Shown in pieces: positions 31,325 through 61,731 of a stretch of DNA of 64,000 nt (position 1 is the stretch's first letter; the number at the start of each line of letters is the position of its first letter). Both the position numbers and the translations under genes were made by a program. Below the pieces are notes generated by a model, which saw only the letters and a list, made by a program, of their open reading frames with translations, had not been told where the DNA came from and ran no database searches. The stretch comes from Myxococcota bacterium (lineage in GTDB: Bacteria; Myxococcota; SpSt-1050), in the NCBI GenBank assembly GCA_049969675.1, contig JBMFOP010000002.1, positions 758-64,757 of the forward strand. Direction: 5' to 3'.

Positions 31325-32230
31325 ATGAGTGAAGATAAGGAAGAAAAGACCAGAGTAATAGACCTCAAGGAAATCAAGACCGACGCCAGGAGCAAGCACG
31401 CATATTTTATAGTAATTTCTGGTAAATTGGCTGGAAAGATGTTCAAGATTGAGCAGAATGAGATGCTAATCGGTCGGTCTGATGAGGCAGATATTCAGAT
31501 TGAGGATGAGGGGGTCTCCAGAAAACACGCCAAAATTACAAGGCTTGCAGATGGGCAGGTGATGCTTATAGACCTCGGTAGCACCAATGGCACATACTTT
31601 AATGGGACAAAGATATCCGAACATATCTTAAAAGATGGAGATAAGATTCAGATAGGGTCTACAACAATTTTGAAATTCAGTTATCAGGATGATGTAGATG
31701 AACAGTTTCAAAAACAGTTCTACGACAGTGCCACAAAAGACCACCTCACAAAGATATTCAATCGTAAATTCTTTGCTGAGAGATTTATTCAGGAATTTAG
31801 TTACGCCCTCAGACATCAGAAGGTATATTCGCTTGCAATACTTGATATTGACCATTTTAAGAGAGTAAACGATACATACGGACATCAGGCTGGAGATTAT
31901 GTGTTGAGACAGGTCGCAGATGTCGTCTCGCAACTAATCAGAAACGAAGATATATTTGCCAGATATGGTGGAGAGGAATTTGTCCTTCTACTCAGAGATA
32001 CAGATGAGGAAAAGGCATTTATCTGCGCTATGAGAATCAGACGGGCGATTGAAAAACATGAATTCAAATTTCAGGATAAGATAATCCCGATTACGGTCAG
32101 TATCGGAATAAGCACACTTAAGGATGGGAATTTTAAGACGCCAGAGGAGATGTTCAGGGTGGCTGATGAATATCTATATAAGGCAAAGAATAATGGCAGA
32201 AATCGGGTGGAAAGTATTATTAATGCCTGA
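31325..32230 (+). CDS. FHA-GGDEF protein (putative diguanylate cyclase with phosphothreonine-binding input domain)
   Basis: FHA (MLIGRSDEADIQIEDEGVSRKHAKITRLADGQVMLIDLGSTNGTYFNG). GGDEF domain with intact GGEEF and a canonical I-site RxxD five residues upstream (RNEDIFARYGGEEF). Confidence 0.75.
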   Translation: MSEDKEEKTRVIDLKEIKTDARSKHAYFIVISGKLAGKMFKIEQNEMLIGRSDEADIQIEDEGVSRKHAKITRLADGQVMLIDLGSTNGTYFNGTKISEHILKDGDKIQIGSTTILKFSYQDDVDEQFQKQFYDSATKDHLTKIFNRKFFAERFIQEFSYALRHQKVYSLAILDIDHFKRVNDTYGHQAGDYVLRQVADVVSQLIRNEDIFARYGGEEFVLLLRDTDEEKAFICAMRIRRAIEKHEFKFQDKIIPITVSIGISTLKDGNFKTPEEMFRVADEYLYKAKNNGRNRVESIINA

Positions 32231-34141: not shown

Positions 34142-34876
34142 ATGAAGAGACGTGATTTCTTAAAAGCCTTTATAACCATCCCATTTATACCAGACCTGTT
34201 TATGCTACTGGATTACTCAAAATTCACAATTGCAAAGGTCAAATATAACGGCAACTGGAATCTCAGAGATAATGCATTAAGAAAGGTTATGTTTGAGGTC
34301 AACAGGAGGACATCCATCTCCTGCTCAAAGGAGCCAGCCACTATCTCGGCAGATGATACAGCCATATTTAACTATCCATTTCTCGTGATAAGCGGAGATA
34401 AGGCGCTGCCCGACTTCTCAGGGCTCTCTATCGCCCGACTCAAACGATTCATCAATAAAGGTGGATTCTTATTCGCAGATTCATCAGAGGAGAAGTCAGA
34501 TGAGTTCTACCTTTCGGTTGTGAAACTGATGAATCAGATCATACCCAATTCTGAATTTGTGACACTTGACGAGAATAATGTAATTTACAAGACATTTTAT
34601 ATGCTGACAAAATCTTACGGGAGACTGAATAAGAAGGACTTCTTTGAGGGTGTAATCTTTGAGAATAGAATTGCACTCCTCTTCTCTCACAATGACCTGC
34701 TCGGCGCCCTCGAGCGTGATGAATTTGGAAATTACAAATATTCAATACCAGATGAGCAGACAAGAAGGGAATTATGTATCAGGACAGCAGTAAATATAGT
34801 AATGTATTCTCTCACAGTTGATTACAAAGACGATCAGGTTCATCACCCATTTTTTAAAGAGAAGATTAGAAGATGA
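34142..34876 (+). CDS. DUF4159-like exported protein
   Basis: Tat-like N-terminus (MKRRDFLKAFITIPF). Domain resembles the DUF4159 family that accompanies VWA/BatA-type loci. ATGA overlap with the downstream VWA gene. Confidence 0.35.
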   Translation: MKRRDFLKAFITIPFIPDLFMLLDYSKFTIAKVKYNGNWNLRDNALRKVMFEVNRRTSISCSKEPATISADDTAIFNYPFLVISGDKALPDFSGLSIARLKRFINKGGFLFADSSEEKSDEFYLSVVKLMNQIIPNSEFVTLDENNVIYKTFYMLTKSYGRLNKKDFFEGVIFENRIALLFSHNDLLGALERDEFGNYKYSIPDEQTRRELCIRTAVNIVMYSLTVDYKDDQVHHPFFKEKIRR

Positions 34877-37077
34877 ATAATCTTTTGACCTCATATAGCA
34901 TAAATTTTGAACCACCCTTATCCGATGTCCTTTCAATCATAGTTGCAATTATAATCCTGCTTCTAACCGCTTACTCCATCAAGAATCTCCTCTTTTATCT
35001 GAGTATAAAAGTCAGGGTGCTTCTGGCAATTTTAAGGACGCTTTCAGTGCTGACATTCCTCTTTATATTCTTTGAACCATCCATTGTTGAGACCACATAC
35101 TACCTTGAAAAGGACACAGTGGCAATTCTTGTAGATGCCTCCCGTTCAATGTCTATTTCATCTGATGGCTTATCAAGGCTCCAGATAGCAAAGAGGGTCG
35201 CCTCAAAGATAATCGGGAATAATGAACTGAGAAAAGAACATAATATAGTCATCTACTCATTTAGTAAGAAGACCCATCTGAACAGCTCAGTTGAAGACAT
35301 CTCCATTCTCAATGAGGATTCAACAGATATTGTCAACTCGCTTGAAGATATAAGGCTCAGACATCAGGACCTCTCAAATATCATTCTAATCTCCGATGGC
35401 GCGGACAACAATCTGCTACAGAATAGAGGTGGAGATATCACTGATATATTAAAGAATTTCGCAAAGAATCTGGAGATCCCGGTTCATACCATTCTGGCAG
35501 GTAATGAGAATAGCATAAACGATGTCGCAATAAAGGTCATCTCCGCCTCACCTATTGGATTTGCAGGTAAAGAGTTTGAGGTCTCTTTATTGATTTCAAA
35601 TAACTCCAATATCACAGAGACAATTCCAGTCAAGATTAAGGAGAATGACACACCTATCTATTCAACCAGCTTAAGAGTACCATTCAATCAGTCAAAACAG
35701 ATTAAAGTCACTCTGTTTCCGAAGAATATGGGGAGAAATGTCTATGAGGTTTCAATCCCACCCTTTAGTGATGAGACAAACCTAAAAAACAATGTAGACT
35801 ATTTCACCTCCAAGATAAGGAAAGAGAGCTTCAGGATACTTCAGATAAGCGGCTCAGTCTCCTATGATGTAAGGTTTCTAAGGCATCTCTTCAAAAAGGC
35901 ACCGGATATAGACCTTATCTCCTTCTTTATTTTACGAACTCTTGAAAGTGATGTAAATGCACCCGATTCCGAACTATCGCTGATCCCATTCCCCGCAGAT
36001 AGTGTAATAAAGGAGAGTCTATTTAGCTTTGATGTTGTAATATTGCAGGACTTCGGATTTGTGCCGTATGGATTAAATACAACATTTTCGGAACTTAACA
36101 ACTTCATCAGGAGAGGCGGAGGACTTATATTCATAACCGGCAACAACTGGTACAGGTGGATCGGGGATTACATAACCTTCTTCAACGACTGTATGCCTGC
36201 TACCCCGAGAACTGATGATAATGCGATTGAGAATATCATCTTCAGGCCAGAGCTCACATCAGATGGGAAGAACCATCCAATAATGAGGATTCTTGATTCA
36301 ATGGAAGAGAATACCATCCTCTTTCGCAATCTCCCCGAACTCCACGGCATACACAGGATAAACAATATCAAGCCTACATCTCTTTCACTTATGTCTGCAA
36401 AGATTACAGAGAACGAGACCCTCCCGATATTTTTAATTAATAGATGTGAGAAAGGTCGCACCGCACTAATTACTACTGATGAATTGTGGAGATTCTCATT
36501 CTCTGAGAAGACCCCTGATGAATTCAATCTCTATAACAAATTGATGAACAACCTGCTTCTATGGATAACGGCTGAACCGGATAGAGAGGACATTGTAATA
36601 TCACAGAGTCAGCAATCATCAAAAACCGATGAACTAAGGGGTAGATTAGCGAGCATCATCTACTCAAATGATATAAAGATACAGATAGAAAATGGAACCA
36701 CTATTCAGGGAAAAATTAATTCTGACGGAGAATTTAGCTTTGATATATCAAAGGTAGAGGATGGCATCCATAACGCCAAGGTCTTATATAATGACAGAAT
36801 TTATAATATCTACTTTTATAAGAAGCTCAAAGATATTGAGATGCAGGATATTTCATTAAGGGCCGATGTCTTAAAAGCAATTGCGAGATACTCTAACGGT
36901 AAATATTACAAAGATAACGATATCTCTGATAAAGAGTTCTCTTTACAAAAGAGACCGATAAAGAAGATTCAGGAGAGAAAACGAACCCCATTATGGAATA
37001 AAACTATATTCCTTGCCCTCATTATAATATTATTTTCAATTGAGTGGTTTACAAGAAGGATGTACGGACACCAATAG
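34873..37077 (+). CDS. BatA-like membrane protein with von Willebrand factor A domain and C-terminal TM
   Basis: Two N-terminal TM segments. VWA MIDAS motif (ILVDASRSMS = DxSxS). Large middle region. C-terminal TM (IFLALIIILFSIEWF). Confidence 0.55.
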   Translation: MNNLLTSYSINFEPPLSDVLSIIVAIIILLLTAYSIKNLLFYLSIKVRVLLAILRTLSVLTFLFIFFEPSIVETTYYLEKDTVAILVDASRSMSISSDGLSRLQIAKRVASKIIGNNELRKEHNIVIYSFSKKTHLNSSVEDISILNEDSTDIVNSLEDIRLRHQDLSNIILISDGADNNLLQNRGGDITDILKNFAKNLEIPVHTILAGNENSINDVAIKVISASPIGFAGKEFEVSLLISNNSNITETIPVKIKENDTPIYSTSLRVPFNQSKQIKVTLFPKNMGRNVYEVSIPPFSDETNLKNNVDYFTSKIRKESFRILQISGSVSYDVRFLRHLFKKAPDIDLISFFILRTLESDVNAPDSELSLIPFPADSVIKESLFSFDVVILQDFGFVPYGLNTTFSELNNFIRRGGGLIFITGNNWYRWIGDYITFFNDCMPATPRTDDNAIENIIFRPELTSDGKNHPIMRILDSMEENTILFRNLPELHGIHRINNIKPTSLSLMSAKITENETLPIFLINRCEKGRTALITTDELWRFSFSEKTPDEFNLYNKLMNNLLLWITAEPDREDIVISQSQQSSKTDELRGRLASIIYSNDIKIQIENGTTIQGKINSDGEFSFDISKVEDGIHNAKVLYNDRIYNIYFYKKLKDIEMQDISLRADVLKAIARYSNGKYYKDNDISDKEFSLQKRPIKKIQERKRTPLWNKTIFLALIIILFSIEWFTRRMYGHQ

Positions 37078-37078: not shown

Positions 37079-37639
37079 TTATTTATTCACAGTAATCAGC
37101 CCCGCCCTCAATCTATTCTGCCCATCATTCTCTACCTCTTTGGGATTTGAAATAGGCATACGGGTATCACCCATATAAAAGCCTATATATACCGCTATCT
37201 TCTGAGCAGAATATGAGGATGGAACCTTTACTTCCCGCTCATCCACGATAATCTCACCCGGTCTCCAGTTGCTGGTGCGATATTTTCCAAATACCGGATA
37301 GTGGTCTCCATGAATCCTCTGCTCAAATCCACCCCACGAATCCATATGGACAAATATCTGCCAATCCTCATCAATGGGTTTAAGACATTTGAAATAGTAT
37401 TTGATCTTAAATTTGGTGCCCGGCCTAACCTCTCTATCCACAGTATAACCGAGGAATGCAATCTGATCTCCAAATATCGCCTTTGAAGGGACCTGAATAT
37501 CTGGAGGCGAGGTAAGTATATATTCCTTAATTGAGGACCTATCAAAAGAATTTCGCTCCTCATCAACCGGCTTTGGATTCGGGAGACAGGAAGAGATTAT
37601 GAGGACCAAAGTGAACAGATATAAATACCTCGGGTTCAT
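37079..37639 (-). CDS. Lipoprotein, unknown function
   Basis: Lipobox (LIISSCLP). 186 aa. No recognisable motif. Confidence 0.4.
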   Translation of the reverse strand: MNPRYLYLFTLVLIISSCLPNPKPVDEERNSFDRSSIKEYILTSPPDIQVPSKAIFGDQIAFLGYTVDREVRPGTKFKIKYYFKCLKPIDEDWQIFVHMDSWGGFEQRIHGDHYPVFGKYRTSNWRPGEIIVDEREVKVPSSYSAQKIAVYIGFYMGDTRMPISNPKEVENDGQNRLRAGLITVNK

Positions 37640-37779
37640 TCAAATTCCTCCTAAGATAAAACGAATATTTAATAATTTTAAATTGAAGTGTCAAGGGATT
37701 TATGCAGGACGGAAATAGTTGATTCTTATTGTTGCATTTCAGGAATCTGGGTTGTATAATAAAACTCAGGAGGTGGGAA

Positions 37780-40700
37780 ATGAAGAAATATCTGTTATTG
37801 ATATCAATCTTTTACCTTTTATATGCCTGTAGCTCACAGACTGAACCTAATAATATCTCTGATGAAAATGTGGATGTGGTCATTAACTTACGGGATGGAA
37901 CTTCTATCAAAGATATTGAACCTTCTGATGCTTCAGAGGAAGTCTGTAAAACAGGTGATAAGAGAAGTTGTTTTAGTGGCACTGACTCCCAGAGGAATAA
38001 GGGAATCTGTAGAGATGGTGAACAGATCTGCACTAATGGTAGATGGGGTGAATGTAAGAATGAAATATTGCCAGAGAGTGATGAGACCTGCGGGAATCAA
38101 AAGGACGATAATTGTAACGGCATTACAGATGAAGGTTGTGAGTGTAAAGATGGAGAAAAGAGGAGTTGTTACACCGCCAGCGAAAATACAAAATATGTAG
38201 GATTATGTAGACCTGGCACACAATATTGCAAAGATGGAAAATGGGGATTGTGTGAAGGTGAGATTACTCCAAAACCAGAGAGCTGCGAAGGTGTAGCCGA
38301 TGGATTTGCCCCTCTTGATTCAGATTGTGACGGGAAACCAGACCCATCAATCACCAACAGGTGCGGTAAATGTGGTCCTGAATTTGAAGAGATATGTGGA
38401 AACCTCGTAGACGATAATTGCAATGGAGAGACTGATGAAGGCTGTATATGCAGGGGCGGGGCGATTCAGAGCTGTTATACCGGTCCCAGAGAGACTCTCA
38501 ATAAAGGAATTTGTAAGGCCGGGATTCAGGAATGTATAAATGGGAGATGGAGTGAATGCAAGGATGAGATACTGCCAGAGAAAGACGAGGTCTGTGGTAA
38601 TCTAAAAGATGACAATTGCAATGGGATTACTGATGAGAACTGCCCCTGCACGGAGGGGGCAAAGAAGAGATGTTATACAGGTCCAGCAAATACAGAGGGT
38701 GTCGGGAGCTGCAGAGCTGGAATATCTATCTGCACAAACGGGGTCTGGGGTAAATGCGAGGGTGAGATACTTCCTGAAAAGGAGAGCTGCATAGGGGTGG
38801 AGGATGGCAAGATTCCAGAAGATACAGATTGTAATGGAGAGGTTGATAGAACAGTTGTAAATCTATGTGGATATTGTGGGCCGCTGCCACAGGAGATTTG
38901 CGGAAATGGAAAGGATGACAACTGCAATGGAGAAGTAGATGAGGGTTGTGATTGTAATGCAGATTGCCAATGCTCGGGTGGGGATTGTGAATGCCAGCCA
39001 AGATTCAATCAGCCCTGTTATGGGGGGCCATTGGAGAATATGGGCAAGGGAATATGCAAGAGCGGACTCCACGATTGTATCTTTGTAAATAATAAGTGGC
39101 AGTGGACTGAATGCAAAGGATATATACTCCCTGAGCCCGGTGAAACCTGTGACGATAAACTGGATAACGATTGCGATGGATATACAGATGAGGGGTGTGA
39201 GAGCAATAATTGTGACCCTGAGACTCAAGAGGGGTGTATTATTGAACCAGAGTGTGAGGACTGGATGATAAGGAGCTGCTACACTGGACCGATTGAGACT
39301 CGCAATAAAGGGAGCTGTCACGACGGCACCCAACATTGTATCAATGGATTCTGGGAAAAGACCTGCAATGGAGAGAAGAAACCAACGGGTGAGGAATGTG
39401 ATGGCATAGATAACAACTGCGATGGGAATATTGATGAAGACTGCGAATGTTCACCCGGTGAAGTGAGTGAATGCTATAATGGACCAATTCCAGTGATCTT
39501 TCAAAACGAGTTTGAGAAGAGTATCTGCAAAAGAGGTGAGAGAGTCTGTCTTGAATCGGGGAGGTGGGGAGAATGCACCGGCGCAACTCTTCCAGTTGAT
39601 GAGGTCTGCGGAGACGGTCTGGATAATAATTGCAATGGATATGTAGATGAATACTGCGATTGTAATCCCGGCCAGAAGAGGCTCTGCTATACCGGAAATC
39701 CAAATACAAGAGGGGTTGGGGAGTGCAGAGATGGGATTGAAGAGTGTACAATTACTGGATGGAGCGGTATCTGTGTTGGGGAGATAAAGCCAGCACAGGA
39801 GATATGTGGTGACGGATTGGACAACGACTGCAACGGACTCATTGATGACTCTGTAAATGCCTGTGGTAAATGTGATGAACCTTGCTACGAAAAGGATTAT
39901 AATGACCTCTCAGATTGCAGTGTAGAAGGGAGGAATTGCAATGGAGTAGAACCCGACCCAAATAATCCGGGCTCTATCACACTCGGTGAGGCGACATTCC
40001 AGACTCCTTTTATCTATGTGGCTGTTCAGGGCAAGAACGAGATAGCCAAACTGGATACAGTAACCGGACAGAAGATATGGCAGAAGTCCTCCTATGGAAC
40101 CGACCCATCCCGTACCGCGGTCGCAATGGACTATTCCGTCTGGGTTGGAAATAGGGGATTCAACTCTCCCGGCAACCCAGATTATTCAAATGCAGTACAC
40201 CTTGATATAGATGGGAATCTCGTATGCCGTGCAGATGTAATCGGGATCTGCAGAGGAATCGCCATTGATGCATATGGATATGTCTGGGCAGGGACATGGA
40301 ATACAAAGAAACTCTATAAGATTCATCCCTATGAAGTGGATAAGACACAGAATCCTCCAAGATGTAAGGTAGAGGCGGTCTATGATATACCTATTCCAGT
40401 CTATGGCCTCGCTGTGGACGGCAGAGGCTATCTATGGGCTTCTACAAATGCGGCTCAGACGATAAAGTTTGATACCTCCAAGGGCAATTACACCCTGGTA
40501 TCATTCCTCGCTGCATACGGGATTGCAGTCTCTCCTAAAAATGGCTGGATATGGTTTGGGAGTTATCACAAGACCGGTTGTGTTAATGCGGTTGAACCAG
40601 ACCCACCTTATACAACACACAATACATCTGTTGGGTGCGGAGGGATTATTACAGGTGTAACAGTTGATAGAGATGGATATGTCTGGGCATCAGCATATAC

Positions 40701-41286
40701 AAGTACGCACAAGGTATATAAGATAGATCCCTCAACAGGGCAGGAGATATGCAGTGCGCTCTCACCCTGTTATCCAGGCGGGAATAGCGGATGCGATGCA
40801 AGGGGTGTAGCAGAGGACTCTGCTGGTAAGATATGGGTAATCAATAGGGGCGGAGGTTATGCCAACAGATTTACAAAAGACTGCAGGCTTGAGGCAACCT
40901 TCCCGATTGACCCGGGTTATTATACCTATACCTACTCTGATATGACCGGACAGCAACTGAGGGTCGTCACCACCAAAGAGGGATATTTCATTCAAAACTT
41001 TGATTCTGGATATACAAACCCCAAATGGTATTCCATCACCTTTGACTCCATTATTCCACCTGATACATCTATTGAAATCAGGGCAAGGGCTGCAAACACC
41101 GCCGGAGAACTCCAGACCAATCCGACTCAGTGGTGTGGGCCTTTTACAATATCACCGGTCGACCTGACCACCTGTCCATTTCTAAATGACCACAGATGGT
41201 TACAAATTGAGGTCAGGCTCTCTACAAAGAAAGATGGTGTCAGACCCTCTTTGAGTAATATTAAGGTATACTGGGCAAGAGATTAA
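37780..41286 (+). CDS. Large Cys-rich lipoprotein with ~8 tandem MopE-like (putative metal-binding, CxxxDDNCNGxxDE) repeats and a C-terminal beta-propeller domain
   Basis: Start set at the Met after the GGAGGTG SD (lipobox LLYACSS). Repeats of the form CYTG...NKGIC..G...C.NG.W..C..EILPE.E.CGN.KDDNCNG.TDEGC. C-terminal 450 aa has propeller-blade motifs (GYVWAGTW, GYLWASTN, GWIWFGSY, GYVWASAY, KIWVINRG). Confidence 0.6.
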   Translation: MKKYLLLISIFYLLYACSSQTEPNNISDENVDVVINLRDGTSIKDIEPSDASEEVCKTGDKRSCFSGTDSQRNKGICRDGEQICTNGRWGECKNEILPESDETCGNQKDDNCNGITDEGCECKDGEKRSCYTASENTKYVGLCRPGTQYCKDGKWGLCEGEITPKPESCEGVADGFAPLDSDCDGKPDPSITNRCGKCGPEFEEICGNLVDDNCNGETDEGCICRGGAIQSCYTGPRETLNKGICKAGIQECINGRWSECKDEILPEKDEVCGNLKDDNCNGITDENCPCTEGAKKRCYTGPANTEGVGSCRAGISICTNGVWGKCEGEILPEKESCIGVEDGKIPEDTDCNGEVDRTVVNLCGYCGPLPQEICGNGKDDNCNGEVDEGCDCNADCQCSGGDCECQPRFNQPCYGGPLENMGKGICKSGLHDCIFVNNKWQWTECKGYILPEPGETCDDKLDNDCDGYTDEGCESNNCDPETQEGCIIEPECEDWMIRSCYTGPIETRNKGSCHDGTQHCINGFWEKTCNGEKKPTGEECDGIDNNCDGNIDEDCECSPGEVSECYNGPIPVIFQNEFEKSICKRGERVCLESGRWGECTGATLPVDEVCGDGLDNNCNGYVDEYCDCNPGQKRLCYTGNPNTRGVGECRDGIEECTITGWSGICVGEIKPAQEICGDGLDNDCNGLIDDSVNACGKCDEPCYEKDYNDLSDCSVEGRNCNGVEPDPNNPGSITLGEATFQTPFIYVAVQGKNEIAKLDTVTGQKIWQKSSYGTDPSRTAVAMDYSVWVGNRGFNSPGNPDYSNAVHLDIDGNLVCRADVIGICRGIAIDAYGYVWAGTWNTKKLYKIHPYEVDKTQNPPRCKVEAVYDIPIPVYGLAVDGRGYLWASTNAAQTIKFDTSKGNYTLVSFLAAYGIAVSPKNGWIWFGSYHKTGCVNAVEPDPPYTTHNTSVGCGGIITGVTVDRDGYVWASAYTSTHKVYKIDPSTGQEICSALSPCYPGGNSGCDARGVAEDSAGKIWVINRGGGYANRFTKDCRLEATFPIDPGYYTYTYSDMTGQQLRVVTTKEGYFIQNFDSGYTNPKWYSITFDSIIPPDTSIEIRARAANTAGELQTNPTQWCGPFTISPVDLTTCPFLNDHRWLQIEVRLSTKKDGVRPSLSNIKVYWARD
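37950..39870 (+). repeat. Tandem in-frame coding repeats (alternating ~200 and ~300 bp units), each ending in a DDNCNG-type motif
   Basis: DDNCNG/DNDCDG codon blocks recur near 38105, 38410, 38605, 38915, 39170, 39415, 39615 and 39825. Confidence 0.55.
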
Positions 41287-44228: not shown

Positions 44229-47200
44229 TCAATAAGTAACTGAACCCGGGATATACCAGAGTACCTTCTCACTCATAGTTCCCTTCAAATAAGTCTGCAC
44301 AGTTCCAGATACAGAATCCAGTAAAACCGCCTGAAGAGTTACAGAATTTATATAGCAATGGTCTGATTGCAACTGCAATGTCTTGTTAATCTTAATCACA
44401 TTGTTGATGTAGCATATTTTGTAATTACTATCCTGAGGGTCAATCTGACAGACCGTCACCTGAGTAGGTGAAGAATAACTGAATGATAGTTTATATGGAG
44501 GTTTCTCCGGTACAATAAATGTTGACGGCCCACTTATAACCGGTGGCGGTGGTGGTGGAATCTCATCCGAAAGAGGCTTAGCTGTTGTAAACTCTATAAC
44601 GGCACCCGGTTGATTTACAAAGTGTGAATCACATACCTTAAAATTAAACTTATACGTCTCTCCGTTACGCATTGAGAAAGTTGTATTCGGGCATAATAGA
44701 TTTATTCCAGGTGATACCGGATTGGAGCCATTACACTGACCCGCAGAAGGATAAGGGTCGGTTACAAGATTGATAGCATCTGACCACGCCATAATGGTCT
44801 CTTTGTATATGTTGGTGTTTGAATCCCATTTGTTATTTCCACTGCTCCAGATACCATCACCGTTTGTATCAAAGAAGAGTTCCACAGGTAGATTTCGCAC
44901 ATTGTCATCATCGGCATCAAAGAATGGCTCGGGCAGGTCCACAAATGGCTCGCTGGCAGAGATGGTATCTCCACCGACTGTATTTATCCAATTATTACAT
45001 CTGGGTGGGTCGTACGAGGCGATATCAATCCTCCTACACTTCTGGTCTGTCCCCGCATCAAACTTCTGTGCCTGAGGTGTTGTAAAGATATTCTCTCTCC
45101 ACATCTCTGAGCCAGTAAAATCACCATTCCCATCATTGTCGTAAAACTCCTCTTCACCAGTTGTAACTGCTATAATTGAAACGACCGTATCCCTCGGATT
45201 ATTTGTGCCATTAAAAGGTTCTCCGGCAATCGGTGTTGTATCATAAGGATATGGCTCTGAGGTTCTCAAAGAAGCAGTAGCAGTACCTAAATATGCCTCC
45301 CAATCATTTGGATATGTTGACTTTGCCGTCTCTCTGTCATAGGTCAATGCCTGTGAAGTCATCAGTCCAGCCTCAGACCTAAAGTGAACTGTTGTAGCCT
45401 TTTCAATCTTATTTGTATATCTATCACCAAGAGAGACCTTACAGGGGACTTCAACAGGTGTACCACCCAATGCAGCAACTACCTTCCTCTCGCAACTAAA
45501 GTTCATATATCGAGCTGAAGGCTTGGCACCGATTATCGCTATGGCTGGAGAGACACCCTGCACTGTTATACCGGGAAGTGTAGATGATGCAGTCACAGTG
45601 AATGTAGTGGCAACTGTACCGGATTTAATCGTAGCATATACCATACCACTATCATCCGTATATGCATAAGGAGGAATAATTACAATCCCGCCCGGTGAAT
45701 TGCTGAGTGTAAAGTCAACCCTCTGATTTTTCGGGAACCTCTGACCGATATTGTCAAATACCTTAAAAGAGATTATCGCTGTCTCATTGAATCCAGAACC
45801 CTTTGCACCCATTACATCACTTGTAATACTCTGATATATAATAGAACCCAGCGTCACAAAATTGACATAGGTAGAGTTAGAAATCACCTTATTATCTGGT
45901 GTAGTAAACTTCCCTTCAATCCTTGCAAGTGCCGCAGCAGGACCACTTATCAATTTTGCAGAGGCGTTTCCACTATTATTCAGCTGAACCGTTATATCTT
46001 TGTGCTGAATGTCGTTATAGACGCATTGTGGCGCCGGATCAATACATTCAAGAGTACCATCTGTCGTTGTAATCTTTACACTGCCGGTCTTCACCGGGGC
46101 ATTTGTATTATCAAAGACAAAGGCAGTAATCGTAGTTCTGGAATCACCATCTGCAATCAGTGATAAGTCAGATGCCACCACACTTATGAAGTAATTTGTA
46201 AGTGCATCTGCCGGTCTGATTATAATGGTAATCTTCCTCATCGGCACCTTATTCCCACAGAAATACTGGGCTGTAACCTCCGCTGCACCAGCCTCTGAAC
46301 CTCCAAACATGGTAACAGTCGCCTCACTATTATTATTGGTCAATACAACAATCTCCTGTTCACCGTTGCTGAATTTGCCCAATGTGGTAGTCAGCTGAAC
46401 CGGTACATTAGCACCGATAGGCTGATTAAACTGGTTTCTAATATCTTTTACAGTAATCACAGTTGAATCTGTTCCATTTGCCTGAATTACACTGTTTGAT
46501 GCCTCAAGCCTGAATGCACAGGGACCGGTGGCATTCGGGTCATTCATAACACCGAGCGAAGTAATGGTAGCACTCTGGTCATACTGCTTCTCATCAGCAG
46601 ACGGGTCAAATGAATAAATAATCTTTACATTGGCAGATACATTCTGGGTCTGGCCAGAATCACCAACCACATCATCAAAGACGGCAAATGTACCTTTGAT
46701 CCCGGCAGAAAAATCGGAGATAGCGGTCTGCTCAGAACAGATATATGACTGGCAGCTTCTACCTGTTGTAATCTTCATTCCAAGGTCATCATTTATAACC
46801 GGGGACTTTCCATCAATCCCTATCTTGCCAATTGTGAATAGAGTTATTATTGAAGATTTAGTTGGAGGATTGAGCCTTGCATCTTTAATCTCATAAGAGA
46901 AGTCCTGAGTACTTCCATCTGCCAGATTGAATGTAATAGGACATATGACACTCAGGTTCGGTTCATTCTGCTTACAATCTGAACCGGGGGCAACAGGGCC
47001 TGTCCAGAGGACATATGTCTTAACCCATACCAATGAATTGTCATTGGGATCAGAATGAGAATCCCAGACTCCGTTGGCCGGCGTATATTTGCCATCTGCA
47101 TTGGTATCAATATACAGCTCAGCGCAGTTATATGGTTTATTCTGCTGTCTCAATGTCTCATCAGCCGGTGTTGAACCATCACAATATCCGTTATCATTCT

Positions 47201-50200
47201 CATCTACAAAAGGTTCGCCCTGATCCACAAATGGCTCACCGGAATCATACTTACCATTCCCGTTGACATCATCAAATTCCTCCTCACCCTTAAATGCAGC
47301 AATCAGAGTTACAAGCCCATCTCTCGGGTTATATGTTTTACCACCTGAGGTATAACGTGGCTCATTGGCAAGAGGGGCAACATCAGCGGGCATTCTCACA
47401 TTGTTCGTCACCAAATTAGCGTATGCGTTTCCATCTTCGCCAATATTTGAGACATTCGTAATAATCCCGGCCTCTGTTATAAATCTTACAGCCACAGGGA
47501 GACTTACAACATTTGTATATCTATCCCTTGCACTTACTACACAATTGGTAGAAACCTTTTCACTCCCAAAACCTCCAAGGTTTTTATATTCACAACCAAA
47601 TGAGACATATTTCCTGTTTGGCTTTGCACCTATAATCACAATCGGATCTGACGATGCCGTGACTATTTGAGTCCCCATCTGCGCCCTTGCAATAATATTT
47701 ATAGTCTGCGCAAGAGTACCGGTTGTAATTATGGTCTTCACGAGACCGTCTTCAGCAGAGATTGAAGATGCTGGATTGAGTGTAATTGCACTTGTCCCGC
47801 TCTGTGCCCCTGTAAATGTAAAATCTACATTCTGACCCGCAAGCGGTCGTCCAGATGAATCAATAACCCTGAAGATTACCTCTGCTGTCTCATTAAATCC
47901 AGAATCTTTTACACCAAGTGGCGACTTTGAAATTGAGAGATATTTAATATCAGCAAGTTGAACAATATTGATTTTCACCTCAGACTTTAATTCGGGGTTG
48001 CTCTGAAATAGAGATGCACTCACTGTTGCCTCGCCTGTTGAATAACCACCCACCATCTCAATTGATGCCAGCCCTCCGGATGTCTGAGTTACACACAGGT
48101 TGGTTGTATTAATCTTGGTATTGATGCACTTATATCCATTTGGACTATTTATATCAGGGGGATTCTTGAAATATCCGAGTGTAGTTGTGAACTTTACAAG
48201 AGTTCCATCAGCAACCGGAATCCCACTGTCATCAATAAGAGTTGCATTAAATTTTGCGGAGTCAACTCCATCAGCCATAATGCTGGTCTTACCAGAATCA
48301 GGCTCCATAAGTATATTGACACCTATAAATGTGACCTTTACCTCGTCAGTAACCTTTGTAGAATATGAATCATTACAGATAAAGCTTGCCTGAATAGTCG
48401 CCGTTCCACCTCTCTCTCCATTTACCATCTGAACAGTTGCCTGCTTATTGCTTGAATTTACTACCAGATATTTTGAACCACCTGCTGTAAATTTACCGAT
48501 ATCTGTGCTGAAAGTAATTGTGGTATCCCAGGGCAATCCATCCTTATCAAGTGGCTCTGCCTTAATAAGGACCTGAGAGACTCCATCAGCGGCGACAGGG
48601 AGAGATGGGGTAAATGAGAGTTTGCTTCTGCAGGCACCTGAACTTATTGTGGAATCCATTCTACCACTTGAGGATATCACAGTCTTCTCAGAACCGGTGG
48701 AGGTCTTTGTCTCTATAGTAGCCGAGACATAAGATGGTTTCATCACCTCCTTTTCAGGGTCATCATCGGCGAGTGTAAATGCCCCGAAATAGCCGGTCCC
48801 AAATGAAAACTCATTTACCTCATAAGATATCTTTGGATTTGTCTGGTTCGCCTTTCTAACTCTTTTAATACCTATGCCGGTCATAGCTGGGACTGTCTTA
48901 CTTGTATCGCCCAGAAGCTTACCGGCACCATCCACCTTGACTTCAATAGTAGAGCCCGGTATTGGGGGGAGGAGATTAAAATCTTTAAAGGCATAATAAA
49001 ATGGCATTGAACCTTTATTTGGTATATCAAATCTCTCCGGACACATCACAGATTGAGAATTTGGATCCGGGGTCGCCCCAAGGCACTTCCCACCAGTAGC
49101 AATATTTCCAGTCCAGACTACCCATGTTGCCTTCCAGATAACCGTATTCCCATCCCATTTGCCATTTGGACCATCATACTGACCATTTAGATTTACATCT
49201 ATAAATGCCTCATCTGAATCCCATTGATTGTTGTCATTCATATCCACAAAAGGCTCACCTAAATCTACGAACGCCTCACCCTCATCGTACTGCCCATTTC
49301 CATTCTCATCATCAAACTCCTCCTCACCTGTTGTCGCCGCTATTATAGTTACTAGACCATCTCTCGGATTTCTTGCAAGCCCCGTCCCCACCCTCGGTTC
49401 ATCAGTAAATGGCTGCACATCTTTGGGCCTTGGGTCCTGAGTTCTCAGTGTTACATTGGCAATCCCCATTGAATCCGGGTCTTCACTTGTCTCAGAAGAT
49501 GGTGTGATTGCCCCCGCCTCTGTCCTGAAGAATATCTTTGTAGAAAATGGAATCTTATTTGAAAACCTATCTGCAATAGCCACCGAGCAGTGCTGTTCAA
49601 GAAGGTCATATACGAATCCCTGAACATTTATATCACCAGGGTTACAACTAAAATTGAAATACCTCGCATTGGGAACACCCGTGGTCATTACCACCGGACC
49701 ACACCTCGCCTCACCAACTTTGGATGAGCCCTTTACCCATACCGTAGTTGGGACAGTGCCGGCATAAAGTATAGTACAGGCAAGCCCTGAGTCATCAGAG
49801 ACCATACTTGTAGGATTGACATATATGCCACCCGGTGCATCTGATGGCGCGAAACTTAATGTAATCTTTGATATTGGTGCACCCTGGTCATCAACCACCT
49901 TAAAACACATATTGGTATAATCTTTATGACCAGAATTCTTGAGCCCAAGATGACTATCTCCAATATATTCACAGGATATTGTAGCATTCCTGATGAGTCT
50001 CACATCTATCGTTTTAGAGAGCTGTCTATCCAAGACTCTGGTCTGAACATTGACTGTAGCAATACCCATATCTCCATCAGACTTCAACTGGACCGATGCC
50101 TTCCCGCCTTCTGTCTTAACTGTTAGATGTTTTGTCTTTGAATTATCCGTTGTAACAAAATATCCAAGTACAGTATCAAAGATTACATCAACCTCTGGCG

Positions 50201-51101
50201 AGACAGGGTTCTCGCCATCCGAGGTGACAGATGCCTCAATCTTCAGTGAGTCAATACCGTTTGCAATCAGATATTCGTATTCACTCGTAACCTTGAGAGT
50301 TGGAGACTTTTCCGGCTCCTGCATAGATATCTTTAATGGCTCGTTTGTATTGGAGACCAGCTCATTACCCTGCGCATCCTTACACTTAAAACTGGCATTG
50401 ACCTGAATCTCGGTATTGGCATAACTGATCGCATAAATCTTGACCTTTGCCGCGCCCTGAGCATTTGTCAGTGCAGATGTACTTAGCACCGGTGTATCAG
50501 TCTTGCTTACAAATGAACCGGGAGAGGTGGTTGTAAAGGTAATCTGAGTACCTGAACTTACCGGTTTTCCTTCATAGTCTGTGGCATTCGCAGATATCTC
50601 AGCATAATCCTCTCCATTGGCAATAATTGACTTCTTATCTGCTGATAGGACTATCAAACAGGGCTCACCGGTCTCAACAGGGATCTTCGTAAAGACCACA
50701 GATGCGGTCTTTCTGTATTCTTTATTGGTTGACGGGTCCGTATAAGCGGCTGTAATTGTGACAGTACCATCTTCTTCAGATGTAAGACTCTCAGTAGCCT
50801 TACCATCGGTAGTATAGACAACCACACTATTTGTATTGTTGGAAAATTTTCCTTTACCTGTCGCATTGAGTGTGATCTCACTATCATCCGGGGCATTCTG
50901 ACCACCAATGGTAAGTCCAATTGTAATCCTGGCTGCCGTCTTCCCATCAGCAGGGACATTGGAAGAAGGGCTCACTGAGAGGGTAAGTTTCACTACTGTA
51001 GAAGGGCCTGTATCTTCTACAGATGCACCACCTCCGCCTCCACAGGAGACGATGAGCACTGTCATAAACACAATTGAAAGGATACCTGAATATTTTTTCA
51101 T
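44229..51101 (-). CDS. Giant (2290 aa) surface lipoprotein/adhesin with Ig-like (Big_1-type) domains and EF-hand-like calcium-binding loop pairs, organised as three ~690-aa super-repeats
   Basis: Lipobox (LIVSCGG). Invasin/intimin-like Ig segments (e.g. LGVKDSGFNETAEVIFRVIDSSGRPLAGQNVDFTFTG). 12-residue DxNxNGxxDxxE loops in pairs (DENGNGQYDEGE, DVNGNGKYDSGE, DNDGNGDFTGSE). Super-repeat anchors PNARYFNFSC / PNRKYVSFGC / PSARYMNFSC. Confidence 0.6.
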   Translation of the reverse strand: MKKYSGILSIVFMTVLIVSCGGGGGASVEDTGPSTVVKLTLSVSPSSNVPADGKTAARITIGLTIGGQNAPDDSEITLNATGKGKFSNNTNSVVVYTTDGKATESLTSEEDGTVTITAAYTDPSTNKEYRKTASVVFTKIPVETGEPCLIVLSADKKSIIANGEDYAEISANATDYEGKPVSSGTQITFTTTSPGSFVSKTDTPVLSTSALTNAQGAAKVKIYAISYANTEIQVNASFKCKDAQGNELVSNTNEPLKISMQEPEKSPTLKVTSEYEYLIANGIDSLKIEASVTSDGENPVSPEVDVIFDTVLGYFVTTDNSKTKHLTVKTEGGKASVQLKSDGDMGIATVNVQTRVLDRQLSKTIDVRLIRNATISCEYIGDSHLGLKNSGHKDYTNMCFKVVDDQGAPISKITLSFAPSDAPGGIYVNPTSMVSDDSGLACTILYAGTVPTTVWVKGSSKVGEARCGPVVMTTGVPNARYFNFSCNPGDINVQGFVYDLLEQHCSVAIADRFSNKIPFSTKIFFRTEAGAITPSSETSEDPDSMGIANVTLRTQDPRPKDVQPFTDEPRVGTGLARNPRDGLVTIIAATTGEEEFDDENGNGQYDEGEAFVDLGEPFVDMNDNNQWDSDEAFIDVNLNGQYDGPNGKWDGNTVIWKATWVVWTGNIATGGKCLGATPDPNSQSVMCPERFDIPNKGSMPFYYAFKDFNLLPPIPGSTIEVKVDGAGKLLGDTSKTVPAMTGIGIKRVRKANQTNPKISYEVNEFSFGTGYFGAFTLADDDPEKEVMKPSYVSATIETKTSTGSEKTVISSSGRMDSTISSGACRSKLSFTPSLPVAADGVSQVLIKAEPLDKDGLPWDTTITFSTDIGKFTAGGSKYLVVNSSNKQATVQMVNGERGGTATIQASFICNDSYSTKVTDEVKVTFIGVNILMEPDSGKTSIMADGVDSAKFNATLIDDSGIPVADGTLVKFTTTLGYFKNPPDINSPNGYKCINTKINTTNLCVTQTSGGLASIEMVGGYSTGEATVSASLFQSNPELKSEVKINIVQLADIKYLSISKSPLGVKDSGFNETAEVIFRVIDSSGRPLAGQNVDFTFTGAQSGTSAITLNPASSISAEDGLVKTIITTGTLAQTINIIARAQMGTQIVTASSDPIVIIGAKPNRKYVSFGCEYKNLGGFGSEKVSTNCVVSARDRYTNVVSLPVAVRFITEAGIITNVSNIGEDGNAYANLVTNNVRMPADVAPLANEPRYTSGGKTYNPRDGLVTLIAAFKGEEEFDDVNGNGKYDSGEPFVDQGEPFVDENDNGYCDGSTPADETLRQQNKPYNCAELYIDTNADGKYTPANGVWDSHSDPNDNSLVWVKTYVLWTGPVAPGSDCKQNEPNLSVICPITFNLADGSTQDFSYEIKDARLNPPTKSSIITLFTIGKIGIDGKSPVINDDLGMKITTGRSCQSYICSEQTAISDFSAGIKGTFAVFDDVVGDSGQTQNVSANVKIIYSFDPSADEKQYDQSATITSLGVMNDPNATGPCAFRLEASNSVIQANGTDSTVITVKDIRNQFNQPIGANVPVQLTTTLGKFSNGEQEIVVLTNNNSEATVTMFGGSEAGAAEVTAQYFCGNKVPMRKITIIIRPADALTNYFISVVASDLSLIADGDSRTTITAFVFDNTNAPVKTGSVKITTTDGTLECIDPAPQCVYNDIQHKDITVQLNNSGNASAKLISGPAAALARIEGKFTTPDNKVISNSTYVNFVTLGSIIYQSITSDVMGAKGSGFNETAIISFKVFDNIGQRFPKNQRVDFTLSNSPGGIVIIPPYAYTDDSGMVYATIKSGTVATTFTVTASSTLPGITVQGVSPAIAIIGAKPSARYMNFSCERKVVAALGGTPVEVPCKVSLGDRYTNKIEKATTVHFRSEAGLMTSQALTYDRETAKSTYPNDWEAYLGTATASLRTSEPYPYDTTPIAGEPFNGTNNPRDTVVSIIAVTTGEEEFYDNDGNGDFTGSEMWRENIFTTPQAQKFDAGTDQKCRRIDIASYDPPRCNNWINTVGGDTISASEPFVDLPEPFFDADDDNVRNLPVELFFDTNGDGIWSSGNNKWDSNTNIYKETIMAWSDAINLVTDPYPSAGQCNGSNPVSPGINLLCPNTTFSMRNGETYKFNFKVCDSHFVNQPGAVIEFTTAKPLSDEIPPPPPPVISGPSTFIVPEKPPYKLSFSYSSPTQVTVCQIDPQDSNYKICYINNVIKINKTLQLQSDHCYINSVTLQAVLLDSVSGTVQTYLKGTMSEKVLWYIPGSVTY
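44900..51000 (-). repeat. Three in-frame super-repeats of ~2.0-2.1 kb within the giant lipoprotein gene
   Basis: The GEEEF(D/Y)D-encoding block recurs near 45150, 47280 and 49310. Flanking segments are diverged at DNA level (protein identity roughly 40-60% by eye). Confidence 0.5.
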
Positions 51102-54059: not shown

Positions 54060-55928
54060 TTAATCTGTTCTCTTGAGTATAAATGGATATGTCACAATCA
54101 CAATACCTCCACCCTTTGGCTCGGGGAATTTCCATCCTTTAATCTTACTAACTATACAATTCTCAACATTCTGGTTATTAATTGTGGTCTCTTTCACCTT
54201 TGCTGACTGAACTGAACCTGTTGGAGATATTACAAAGTTGACTGATACCTTACCCCAAAGTCCAGGATTCTTTGCAAGCTCAAGCTCATAGCAGTATCTT
54301 ATCTCATTTGCATGTGCCCTGATAACTCTTCTGATCAATTCCTTATCAAGTGAACCGAGGACCATTGGAGTTCCACCAGATATACCTATATCATGTTCCT
54401 TCTTTCCACCAATTGAACCCACACCATAACCATAACCACCCTGTCCCGCACCTCTCCCTCTGGTACCAACAGAGCCGATGCCGATAGAATCAAGGCTGGA
54501 ACCTCCGCCACCAGGACCAACACCTCTAAGCCCTAATCCACCCGAGCCCCTTGCATCACCTATCTGAGAACCAAATAGTCCTCCAATAGCATTTTGTAAA
54601 TCACCTCCAAGACCTTTTCCACCAAATAATGTTGAGCCACCGGCAAACATACCACCACTCTTGCCAAACATTTTCAACACTCCAACTTTCTGGACAATCT
54701 CCCTATCATCGGGTTTAATTGCCTTTACAGCAGACCTCTTAAAAACCTCTGGTGCATCTTTCTTGCCCATCTTACCTTCCTTACCTGCTGCTTTTGCACC
54801 CGACTCGCCCTGCTTTGGCATCTCCTTTAATTTCTTCATCTCTTTATCATCGTCCATTTTCTTCGCTGGTGTCATAATGAAGTTGACAAATTTATTAGGA
54901 TTTTTAACCACCTGTTCGGTCTCAGCCTTTATATCGTATGGGAATAGATACATACTTACCAGTGATGTAACCGTAAAGAAGACAGCCACAATAAGGGCAT
55001 TTAAATAATTGTAATCAACATTAGTTCCCAATCCGAGAGGGAGTTTTCTTGGTGGAGGTGTAAATCTAAACTGAAAAATTGCATTGTTAATATACATTCT
55101 GGTAATCGAATTAGGGGGCAGTGTATAGATATAAGAATCGGGTATTTGAGGATCAGGAAGTGCCCTTTTTTCATCTATCAAATCCTTGAATGACTTTGAA
55201 CTCTCTCCAATATAGACCTCTCCCTCCACATTCCTTGGAAAGGTGAGTTGATATTCTCTATTTACTGTTCTAATAACTGGATATTCAGGGATGGTTATCT
55301 CATCCGGTATAATATAGAAATCACACTTACTCGTTGAACCTATAGTCACCTTCTGAGGATATGTAAAATATTTTACATCAACCATCTCCATATACCACAG
55401 GAACTTTACCTCAATAGCCCTATTTCCATAAGGGTCCTTCTCCTCCTCTTCATGCTCATCCAAATCCCTCTTTGATGCACCCTGTGGCTTTATATTCTCT
55501 TTAGGCTTACTCTTTTGAACCTCTCTCTTCTCTAATTTTGGAGATACTAACTTCTCCTCCTTTACAACCTCCTCCCTCTCCTCTTCAACTACCGGGGCTA
55601 CTGCAACTGGAGATTTTATAACACCTTTATCAATTGATACAATCAGCTTTGTCTTCCCGAGGAGAATCTCATCACCGTCATTTAATACAGCCCTTTCTAC
55701 GGTCTCTCCATTGACTATGGTTCCAGCGGATGAGCCCATATCCTTAATGAGATATCCATCTGATGTGGCTTCAATATGTGCATGAACCCTTGAGACTGTA
55801 GGGTCATCCAGCTTCAGATTAACAGAGGATAGTCTTCCAATTTTAATGAGAGCATCTGAATATGTCTCCTCTCCAATAAACTCATCACCATAATAAATCT
55901 TAAAAGAAATCTTTTTATCCATGGTCAT
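54060..55928 (-). CDS. FHA + TM + AgmX/PglI C-terminal (TonB-C-like) domain protein, GltG/PglI/NfsG-like
   Basis: FHA (IGRLSSVNLKLDDPTVSRVHAHIEATSDGYLIKDMGSSAGTIVNGETV). Acidic/Pro-rich linker, TM (LNALIVAVFFTVTSLVSMYLF), Gly-rich region. C-terminal domain with the conserved Cys pair (ANEIRYCYELELAKNPGLWGKVSVNFVISPTGSV ... NCIVSKIKGWKFPEP). Confidence 0.65.
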   Translation of the reverse strand: MTMDKKISFKIYYGDEFIGEETYSDALIKIGRLSSVNLKLDDPTVSRVHAHIEATSDGYLIKDMGSSAGTIVNGETVERAVLNDGDEILLGKTKLIVSIDKGVIKSPVAVAPVVEEEREEVVKEEKLVSPKLEKREVQKSKPKENIKPQGASKRDLDEHEEEEKDPYGNRAIEVKFLWYMEMVDVKYFTYPQKVTIGSTSKCDFYIIPDEITIPEYPVIRTVNREYQLTFPRNVEGEVYIGESSKSFKDLIDEKRALPDPQIPDSYIYTLPPNSITRMYINNAIFQFRFTPPPRKLPLGLGTNVDYNYLNALIVAVFFTVTSLVSMYLFPYDIKAETEQVVKNPNKFVNFIMTPAKKMDDDKEMKKLKEMPKQGESGAKAAGKEGKMGKKDAPEVFKRSAVKAIKPDDREIVQKVGVLKMFGKSGGMFAGGSTLFGGKGLGGDLQNAIGGLFGSQIGDARGSGGLGLRGVGPGGGGSSLDSIGIGSVGTRGRGAGQGGYGYGVGSIGGKKEHDIGISGGTPMVLGSLDKELIRRVIRAHANEIRYCYELELAKNPGLWGKVSVNFVISPTGSVQSAKVKETTINNQNVENCIVSKIKGWKFPEPKGGGIVIVTYPFILKRTD

Positions 55929-61678: not shown

Positions 61679-61731
61679 CAGACCTCCATAATCGGCAACC
61701 CCTCAGAGAGAGGATGCAAAACCATTTGATA

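Follow-up and report, generated by a model that had tools for sequence, protein, structure and literature searches.

What is the function of a bacterial lipoprotein whose repeats match a family named for copper binding and whose C-terminal part resembles a beta-propeller? Such a protein is encoded on the forward strand of the window (the whole stretch of DNA analysed, 64,000 nucleotides of contig JBMFOP010000002.1 from a Myxococcota bacterium). The open reading frame is genuine: it spans positions 37729 to 41286 (+), and its biological start, the ATG at 37780, has the ribosome site AGGAGG 8 nt on its 5' side and gives a product of 1168 residues. Opposite-strand reading frames within the gene were dismissed as by-products of skewed composition, and promoter and terminator scans at the gene gave signals at or below shuffle expectation. 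The initial annotation had proposed a lipoprotein that continues into a propeller and a beta-sandwich-like tail, and this layout proved right (Table 1). Judged from its sequence, the protein qualifies as a bacterial lipoprotein, with a predicted signal peptide closing on a lipobox cysteine (LLYA/C17-SS) that is kept among orthologs (P0001, L001 and L003, likewise ...(S/A)C-SS).

Table 1. Features of the gene and its product, in window positions (aa, residues of the protein).
Feature	Position	Strand	Basis
Lipoprotein signal peptide with lipobox MKKYLLLISIFYLLYA, then C17	37780..37830	+	Read from sequence; ortholog lipoboxes
Acidic tether, Cys-free, aa 18-52, probably disordered	37831..37935	+	Low ortholog identity; disorder inferred
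Stalk unit 1, short, 66 aa; Cys hairpin sub-module and PF11617 acidic loop	37936..38133	+	Motif, PF11617
Stalk unit 2, long, 102 aa	38134..38439	+	Motif and unit comparison
Unit 2 insert, extra DSDCDG loop and CGKCGP, aa 167-200	38278-38379	+	
Stalk unit 3, short, 66 aa	38440..38637	+	Motif; AF2 jointly with unit 4, pLDDT 95.1
Stalk unit 4, long, 102 aa	38638..38943	+	Motif; AF2 model
Unit 4 insert, DTDCNG loop and CGYCGP, aa 335-368	38782-38883	+	
Stalk unit 5, 83 aa, begins with Cys knot	38944..39192	+	Motif
Cys knot CDCNADCQCSGGDCECQP, aa 390-407	38947-39000	+	Conserved in P0003, P0004, P0006, P0009, P0012
Stalk unit 6, 82 aa, N-terminal Cys-rich extension	39193..39438	+	
Stalk unit 7, 71 aa	39439..39651	+	
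Stalk unit 8, 66 aa	39652..39849	+	
Cys-rich connector NACGKCDEPCY..., aa 691-728	39850..39963	+	Alignment of 66 homologs; short strands modelled
Seven-bladed beta-propeller, aa 729-1042	39964..40905	+	AF2, Foldseek, weak Pfam Reg_prop/SGL
Invariant PSRTAV within propeller	40105-40122	+	
Linker with family-invariant PYTYSDMTG	40906..40977	+	Homolog alignments
YTYSDMTG within linker	40927-40950	+	
C-terminal beta-sandwich, aa 1067-1168, and stop codon	40978..41286	+	AF2 strands, fragment residues 377-476

The stalk consists of eight units, each closing on E-x-C-G-[ND]-x-x-D-[DN]-[ND]-C-[ND]-G-x-x-D-[DE]; the motif [DN]x[DN]C[DN]GxxxD/E recurs eight times, with ends at residues 118, 220, 286, 388, 471, 553, 624 and 690, which bears out the estimate of about eight repeats. 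The short/long alternation that had been described holds for units 1-4 but breaks down in units 5-8, and the insert ascribed to every second unit (34-36 residues, a DxDC[DN]G loop and CG(K/Y)CGP) was recovered in units 2 and 4. The extra Cys-dense knot reported for one unit is present in unit 5, and distant homologs keep it. Ahead of its acidic loop, each unit carries a hairpin sub-module with the pattern C-x-C-x7-CYxGP...GxCxxGxxxCxxGxWxxC. Cysteine makes up 12% of the repeat region (80 per 661 residues), and the whole stalk holds 82 in 668 residues; their fixed spacings fit disulfides better than metal thiolates, and all 82 are presumably disulfide-bonded. Units 3 and 4, a short and a long one, were modelled together by AF2 with confidence (pLDDT 95), and the model matched no known fold in the PDB (Foldseek, best E = 4.1). 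Similarly, the 636-residue repeat region retrieved nothing at E≤10 from all PDB chains with phmmer, and the first ∼42 residues of every unit matched no Pfam family. The idea that the repeats expanded recently, or form a contingency locus, was rejected because TRF detected no tandem array, identity between units is low (38-62% in protein, ∼60% in DNA), and unit order and lengths are the same in orthologs of 80-89% identity.

Searched as a whole, the protein matches PF11617 (Cu-binding_MopE) in eight stretches with 99.5 bits (E = 1.1e-28), far above chance and above the gathering cut-off of 27 bits, although single units score slightly below that cut-off (22.9-25.8 bits each). The family core C-x-[DN]-x-x-D-[DN]-[DN]-C-[DN]-G-x-x-D-[DE] is present in 8/8 units, and 16 aligned motifs share P, E, C, D, C, G and D without exception; the acidic cluster is thus conserved, in line with the initial annotation. 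That annotation had also named an outcome that would overturn it, namely repeats resembling only EGF-like domains with the acidic cluster unconserved. When single units were compared with Pfam at E≤10, PF11617 alone was matched, on the last 17-24 residues, and no EGF family was, so this outcome did not occur. The proposed TIGR02232 Myxococcus cysteine-rich repeat found no backing: an NCBIfam scan (release 20.0, in which we take the TIGR02232 model to be present) returned no family at E≤1.

Does the PF11617 match imply copper? The initial annotation had offered a copper, metal-scavenging or redox role, and the family name invites a similar reading, in which the acidic, Cys-rich repeats would take up copper or other metals and the protein would serve as a scavenger or store. 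The stalk is strongly acidic (130 D/E vs 59 K/R, net charge near -71), and MopE* lacking its first 24 residues, part of the motif-bearing region, is no longer retained on a Cu(II) IMAC column (PMC3423442). However, in MopE* the canonical motif of homolog P0012 matches residues 6-44 (E = 0.0012), which fall within the 46 N-terminal residues that are invisible in the crystal, and the high-affinity Cu(I) site is formed by His132, His203 and Kyn130 (PMC3423442). The Cu(I) site of MopE* thus lies elsewhere in the protein, and the motif lends the copper reading no support. The remainder of MopE*, including the beta-sandwich core of MopE* and CorA, showed no similarity to the stalk (phmmer, PDB chains), and neither this core nor the His/His/kynurenine site has a counterpart in the protein studied here. 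The 668-residue stalk contains just three His (residues 431, 514 and 519) and two Met, none of which recurs unit by unit, and copper-handling genes are absent from the neighbourhood. Oxygen ligands from carboxylate and amide groups, moreover, prefer Ca2+. We therefore consider metal scavenging or storage highly improbable. What the methanotroph surface proteins MopE and CorA (PDB 2VOV) and this protein have in common is the PF11617 motif, of which MopE has one and this protein eight to ten, and an association with the cell surface, which is predicted in the present case. Because the Cu-binding_MopE label derives from a segment that is absent from the crystal and does not form the Cu(I) site, inferring copper handling from PF11617 is unsafe.

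The acidic loops are instead likely to bind Ca2+ rather than copper, as suggested by their residue pattern. Ten loops, the eight canonical ones and those of the two long-unit inserts, fit the relaxed pattern Dx[DN]x[DN]GxxD, and 3/10 (in unit 5, unit 6 and the insert of unit 2) fit the strict form Dx[DN]xDG, an established Ca2+ motif found in at least 16 structural contexts (PMC3123361). A profile of the motif retrieved a single match from the PDB, GEIAGDGIDNDGNGYIDD in the subtilase 3VV3, which is likewise of the Dx[DN]xDG type. Parallels exist in three kinds of module, namely the C-rich domain of teneurin, the type-3 repeats of thrombospondin and the class A modules of the LDL receptor, whose acidic loops are likewise short, clamped by disulfides and of the DxDxDGxxD type, and bind structural Ca2+ (PMC9058538). 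In teneurin, a similar Cys-rich acidic motif, which has been aligned to PF11617 (PMC3278476), binds three Ca2+ in a 1.5 Å structure (PMC9058538), and the Cys-rich calcium domain also precedes an NHL-type propeller (PMC3278476). This likeness is at the level of pattern only: Cys positions differ, with the loop Cys at position 4 in the present protein. From the PDB the motif profile retrieved none of the three kinds; PF11617 likewise retrieved neither teneurin nor thrombospondin, gave no match to the C-rich cores of teneurin at E≤10, and scored neither the 24 N-terminal residues of MopE* nor the inserts of the long units. Together with the Foldseek result for the stalk (E 4.1), these searches revealed no homology in sequence or fold to the teneurin C-rich domain or thrombospondin type-3 repeats, and because the profiles failed to retrieve these proteins, the assignment of calcium leans on a short pattern. 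In all three kinds of parallel module, calcium has a stiffening effect.

The C-terminal part, or head, was modelled by AF2 with high confidence (pLDDT 94, pTM 0.87). The model contains 28 propeller strands and thus seven blades, not the five or six that had been counted; the blade motif given as GY(V/L/I)W is real in the form G[YWK][VLI]W but is carried by only five of them, and the beta-sandwich-like tail agrees with the model. The sandwich itself has no Pfam match. Foldseek relates the head with probability 1.00 to 1L0Q, 2QC5, 2Z2N, YncE and NHL domains, that is, to generic seven-bladed propellers at 8-15% identity; teneurin propellers are missing from its top 50 fold matches. In sequence, Reg_prop reaches 24 bits (cut-off 20.4), and phmmer retrieved designed Pizza propellers alone from the PDB chains. 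The head shares its fold and the blade signature GIAVDxxGxVW with the YVTN, NHL and Vgb-lyase propellers (1L0Q, 2QC5/2Z2N, YncE), and in 1L0Q, too, the propeller is followed by a beta-sandwich. It differs from them in invariants of its own (PSRT and PYTYSDMTG) and in having no conserved His or Glu.

Across the head family, conservation falls on PSRT, two Arg, two Tyr-Gly and PYTYSDMTG, and the invariant positions are S777, R778, T779, R792, R825, Y875, Y913 and Y1050-G1057. Homologs down to 25% identity always have Y, Y, S, D and G in the linker motif and nearly always its T, M and T. In the connector, C5, G6, C8 and C12 are invariant across 66 homologs. Because most of the conserved head residues open successive innermost strands, the topology of the model suggests that a conserved pocket lies where the central channel opens on one side. 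The Arg/Tyr lining of this putative pocket would suit an anionic or aromatic ligand.

Such conservation also resembles that of an active site: even homologs of 25% identity keep the polar residues S, R, T, R, R, Y, Y and YSDMTG unchanged. The head could then be an enzyme similar in type to Vgb lyase or SMP30/gluconolactonase, acting as lyase, lactonase or hydrolase, with a stalk that only positions it outside the cell. The fold search returned two Vgb lyase structures, 2QC5 and 2Z2N, precomputed Vgb_lyase matches occur among homologs, and JGI labels homologs 'streptogramin lyase' or 'sugar lactone lactonase YvrE'. These names are automatic annotations, however, the fold matches are those of generic propellers, and the SGL match of 23.2 bits falls under its gathering cut-off of 26.3. 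No His or Glu occurs among the invariant or near-invariant head columns in alignments of 66 and 14 sequences, whereas Vgb lyase needs His270, the H270A mutant being catalytically inactive (entry 2Z2P). Neither a family score above cut-off nor the catalytic His/Glu of Vgb lyase or SMP30 was thus found, and we consider an enzymatic head unlikely.

How widespread is this architecture? It is common in Myxococcota and "Deltaproteobacteria" MAGs, where it is annotated "MopE-related protein". Proteins labelled "MopE-related" or "putative metal-binding motif-containing" (among them P0009, P0011, P0012, P0019, P0041 and P0073) have the same order of parts, from the lipoprotein signal through PF11617 units, the CxCxxxCxCxxGxCxC knot, the NACGxC connector and the propeller to PYTYSDMTG and the beta-sandwich, at 39-57% identity across 68-82% of the length. 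They are ∼950-1030 residues long; the present protein and its 80-89% orthologs (∼1170 residues, 8 units) have one additional short-plus-long pair. By sequence, the protein is unremarkable within a large family of predicted envelope proteins that is uncharacterised, and our literature search found no experimental paper on any MopE-related member. The head family comprises ∼1,800 clusters at 50% identity and also occurs with other stalks or stalkless.

Nearby genes encode other large surface proteins, among them a Big_1/invasin giant and a matrixin. The close ortholog L001 shares downstream genes only (rpmE, an epmA-like gene, the matrixin, a 326-aa reading frame and the Big_1 giant), and a shared neighbourhood sought among distant homologs was not found, so that gene order gives no hint at the ligand. 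The ∼780-aa upstream genes in L001 and L007, considered as a conserved partner, are unrelated and were rejected.

This context, together with an abundant family that includes paralogs (in tandem in L008, and as a second copy within the same MAG in L005), could also fit a structural part of the envelope or surface layer that spaces or cross-links envelope or matrix and has no specific external ligand. The best PDB match of the head, 1L0Q (E = 2.4e-14), is in fact a surface-layer protein of the archaeon Methanosarcina, with a YVTN propeller and PKD in tandem. A lipid anchor, a long stalk and a single head would, however, be more typical of a receptor or adhesin, we saw no sign of lattice-forming self-association, and the strong conservation of polar residues in the putative pocket favours a specific ligand. 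A purely structural role is therefore rather improbable.

We lean, with moderate confidence, toward a lipid-anchored envelope protein in which a calcium-stiffened stalk presents a ligand-binding propeller head. Lipidated Cys17 would anchor the protein, and the short acidic tether would lead into a ∼640-residue stalk of eight modules, each a beta-hairpin sub-module plus an acidic loop. Ca2+ bound in ten loops would stiffen this stalk, so that it could project the working part, the seven-bladed propeller joined to the C-terminal beta-sandwich, whose most likely role would be to bind or adhere to an envelope or extracellular ligand. Of the roles originally offered, adhesion or ligand binding fits best; copper, scavenging and redox functions found no support. 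Two further points were counted in favour of the stalk-and-head reading: identity to 80%-identical orthologs is higher in the head (89%) than in the stalk (80%; tether ∼30%), and the head family exists independently of the stalk.

A bolder reading, which we regard as a long shot, is that the repeat is a structurally unsolved calcium rod module, that the head represents a new ligand-binding or catalytic family, and that bacterial proteins joining a Cys-rich calcium motif of the PF11617 type to an NHL-like propeller correspond to, or even gave rise to, the teneurin arrangement of C-rich domain plus propeller, the origin of which is debated (PMC3278476). If so, the Arg/Tyr-lined channel mouth and PSRT...PYTYSDMTG would define a new head family. 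The Cys hairpin, which is predicted with confidence, takes up about two-thirds of each repeat and matches no Pfam family or PDB fold. The propeller-plus-sandwich head is a separate, portable family, and its invariant motifs define a target for structural and ligand work.

The target gene probably starts at the ATG at position 37780, which has AGGAGG 8 nt upstream and gives a product of 1168 aa. Its N-terminus, MKKYLLLISIFYLLYA followed directly by C17-SS, is a lipoprotein signal, and the ...(S/A)C-SS is kept in orthologs although their N-terminal sequences otherwise differ. A search with the full-length protein returned more than 2,000 matches; proteins of this architecture, about 900-1,100 aa long, are frequent among Myxococcota and "Deltaproteobacteria" MAGs, under the source names "MopE-related protein", "streptogramin lyase" or hypothetical. 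The target is a member of an already known kind, experimentally uncharacterised, and a literature search found no paper on its family. Orthologs at 80-89% identity, from MAGs bearing the label Deltaproteobacteria bacterium or Bdellovibrio sp., retain the eight-unit plan; one short-plus-long unit pair is missing in more distant members. By region, ortholog identity is 87-89% in the head, 79-80% in the stalk and about 30% in the tether. Paralogs of the family occur within single genomes: one MAG carries both an 89% ortholog (locus L002) and a 52% paralog (L005, JBBISZ010000190.1), and one metagenome contig (L008, 5011-11258) holds two family members in tandem.

The Pfam scan places the stalk in PF11617 (Cu-binding_MopE; E = 1.1e-28, 99.5 bits, 8 stretches), confirming the motif family named in the initial annotation; TIGR02232, also suggested there, gained no support, the NCBIfam scan of the target being empty at E<=1. 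In single units PF11617 covers only the last 17-24 residues, and for the first ~42 residues (the part with the Cys hairpin) no Pfam family, not even an EGF one, scores at E<=10. Repeats matching only generic EGF domains, with no acidic cluster, were looked for and are absent: PF11617 matches and EGF does not. Eight copies of the motif [DN]x[DN]C[DN]GxxxD/E are present in the target (ends at aa 118, 220, 286, 388, 471, 553, 624 and 690) and, in a six-frame scan, none elsewhere in the 64-kb window; the scan also found two additional DxDC[DN]G loops, within long units. Units 1-4 (66, 102, 66 and 102 aa) alternate between short and long as first described, while units 5-8 (83, 82, 71 and 66 aa) do not. 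The MAFFT consensus of the eight units is c-x-C-x2-g-x4-CYtGp-...-kGxCxxGxxxC-...-W-xx-C-x-geilP-...-ExCg-xxx-DxnCnGxxDE. The extra Cys knot reported earlier, CDCNADCQCSGGDCECQP, is found at the start of unit 5 (aa 390-407) and recurs in homologs at 40-57% identity.

Recent repeat expansion is ruled out by the protein identity between units (38-62%), the DNA identity of units 1-2 to units 3-4 (about 60%) and the lack of any tandem array by TRF; direct repeats at the DNA level are no more than 60-80% alike. The repeats are old and under selection. In an AF2 model of units 3+4 (pLDDT 95.1, 64 aligned sequences), each unit is predicted to fold as a short strand, a turn, a beta-hairpin and then coil, and Foldseek finds no PDB match to this model (best E = 4.1). 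GC content (0.46, against ~0.38-0.43 elsewhere) and GC skew (+0.33) peak at window 38001-40000, coincident with the stalk coding region, which is probably a codon-composition effect of the Cys/Gly/Asp/Glu-rich stalk, not foreign DNA.

The copper, redox or metal-scavenging role proposed initially is wrong or, at the least, unsupported. The whole repeat region has no PDB match at E<=10, and a profile of 16 motifs finds a sole PDB match, GEIAGDGIDNDGNGYIDD in the subtilase 3VV3, retrieving neither teneurin nor thrombospondin. A full-length canonical motif of a homolog, P0012, matches the methanotroph copper-binding protein MopE* (2VOV, E = 0.0012) over residues 6-44, DRDGDGSTADADCNDFAPTIHPGAAEATLDGVDSNCDGR. 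In MopE*, electron density is missing for the first 46 residues, the high-affinity Cu(I) site consists of His132, His203 and kynurenine-130, and the sole copper link of the N-terminal segment is that loss of the first 24 residues abolishes Cu(II) column retention (PMC3423442). Because the motif lies in the invisible segment and the Cu(I) site elsewhere, it is a motif without a solved structure and not the known copper site. Among the 668 aa of the stalk there are only 3 His and 2 Met, without periodicity, and no copper-handling genes lie near the target; both points, together with the location of the motif, make a copper scavenger highly improbable. The stalk further contains 82 Cys at fixed spacing and 130 D/E vs 59 K/R. 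Its loops, D-[DN]-[ND]-C-[ND]-G-x-x-D-[DE], are a relaxed version of the Dx[DN]xDG calcium loop (PMC3123361). They also resemble, at the pattern level only, the teneurin C-rich core, which is not scored by PF11617, was aligned to that family by Tucker et al. (PMC3278476) and has since been shown to bind three Ca2+ (PMC9058538). The ion of the stalk loops is likely to be calcium.

The AF2 model of the head (aa 691-1168; pLDDT 94.0, pTM 0.87) has 28 strands at head-fragment residues 39-352, forming seven four-stranded blades, with a helix and then a beta-sandwich C-terminal to them. The initial description is for the most part correct, and Pfam and AF2 bear out its architecture (motif repeats, propeller, C-terminal beta-sandwich), with seven blades in place of five or six. 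Pfam matches here are weak (Reg_prop, 24 bits; SGL, 23.2 bits, under its cut-off), and by sequence the head matches designed Pizza (NHL-type) propellers only. The best Foldseek match (E = 2.4e-14) is 1L0Q, an archaeal surface-layer protein whose tandem of YVTN propeller and PKD is similar in fold; that the target is itself a structural surface-layer-like component, as this likeness might suggest, is improbable. Further matches are designed propellers, NirF, Vgb lyase, NHL domains, YncE and WD40 proteins, all matches being at 8-15% identity.

A word-indexed search with the head alone gave 230 hits, and the head family comprises 1,797 clusters (50% identity) at E<=1e-3, 725 at E<=1e-10 and 63 at E<=1e-30. 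Many members, of 500-750 aa, lack the PF11617 stalk or carry other N-terminal modules; by itself the head delimits a family. Among the residues invariant down to ~25% identity are PSRT, two Arg, two Tyr-Gly pairs, PYTYSDMTG and several blade-signature Gly/Asp/Trp. In successive blades, the conserved Arg/Tyr sit at the first positions of the innermost strand; we infer from this that the propeller channel has a conserved pocket at one of its mouths. An enzymatic head, with Vgb lyase among its fold matches, seems unlikely; no His or Glu is invariant in the family, which disfavors a mechanism like that of Vgb lyase, an enzyme inactivated by the H270A mutation (PDB entry 2Z2P). Five distant members (P0153, P0160, P0165, P0172 and P0187; alignment A4, columns ~700-740) have an insertion between blades, CxDxNGNGxIDTSxDxNGDGxI, with two further DxNGxG-type loops; the target's subfamily lacks it.

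The target is surrounded by housekeeping and envelope genes, those upstream being secA, an aminotransferase, FHA-GGDEF, DUF4159 and the VWA membrane protein. The DUF4159/VWA pair and the 186-aa ORF are not conserved upstream of the 80% ortholog (locus L001), and only the downstream block is common to both. There, the L31 call is supported by PF01197 at the same position in L001, which also keeps the EpmA-like gene and, beside the block, the Big_1/invasin gene, whose product resembles a giant adhesin. The PF00152 protein lacks the anticodon-binding part and resembles EF-P lysyl ligases of the EpmA/PoxA type. The first 32 nt of the matrixin gene lie within the end of the gene before it, and the C-terminal end of the matrixin is Cys-rich (...SGCSCSTLSY). 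Distant homologs have no neighbor genes in common with the target. The FHA-GGDEF, FHA and large TPR genes are content typical of Myxococcota-like genomes.

Features of the target and its neighborhood (window coordinates)
Feature	Position	Strand	Remark
FHA-GGDEF diguanylate cyclase	31325-32230	+	
DUF4159 protein, then 734-aa membrane protein (weak VWA_2 match)	34142-37077	+	BatA-like pair
186-aa lipoprotein-like ORF	37079-37639	-	no Pfam match; convergent to VWA gene, divergent from target
Target ORF	37729-41286	+	open reading frame
rpmE, ribosomal protein L31, 76 aa	41347-41577	+	ends ...KKD; between target and next gene
EpmA-like ligase, 330 aa	41601-42593	+	class II tRNA-synthetase-like (PF00152)
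Matrixin (peptidase M10), 227 aa	42562-43245	+	HEIGHMIGLDH zinc motif
2,290-aa protein	44229-51101	-	Big_1 + Invasin_D3 repeats; other strand than target
622-aa FHA protein	54060-55928	-	
Three large TPR proteins	56284-63555	-	

On balance the most likely reading, which we consider somewhat probable, is of a stalk that is lipid-anchored, disulfide-knotted and calcium-stiffened and that presents a ligand-binding propeller-plus-sandwich head. The lipid anchor would provide the attachment point of the stalk at the envelope; the stalk, knotted by its disulfides and stiffened by calcium, would present the head, which may in turn bind the ligand.
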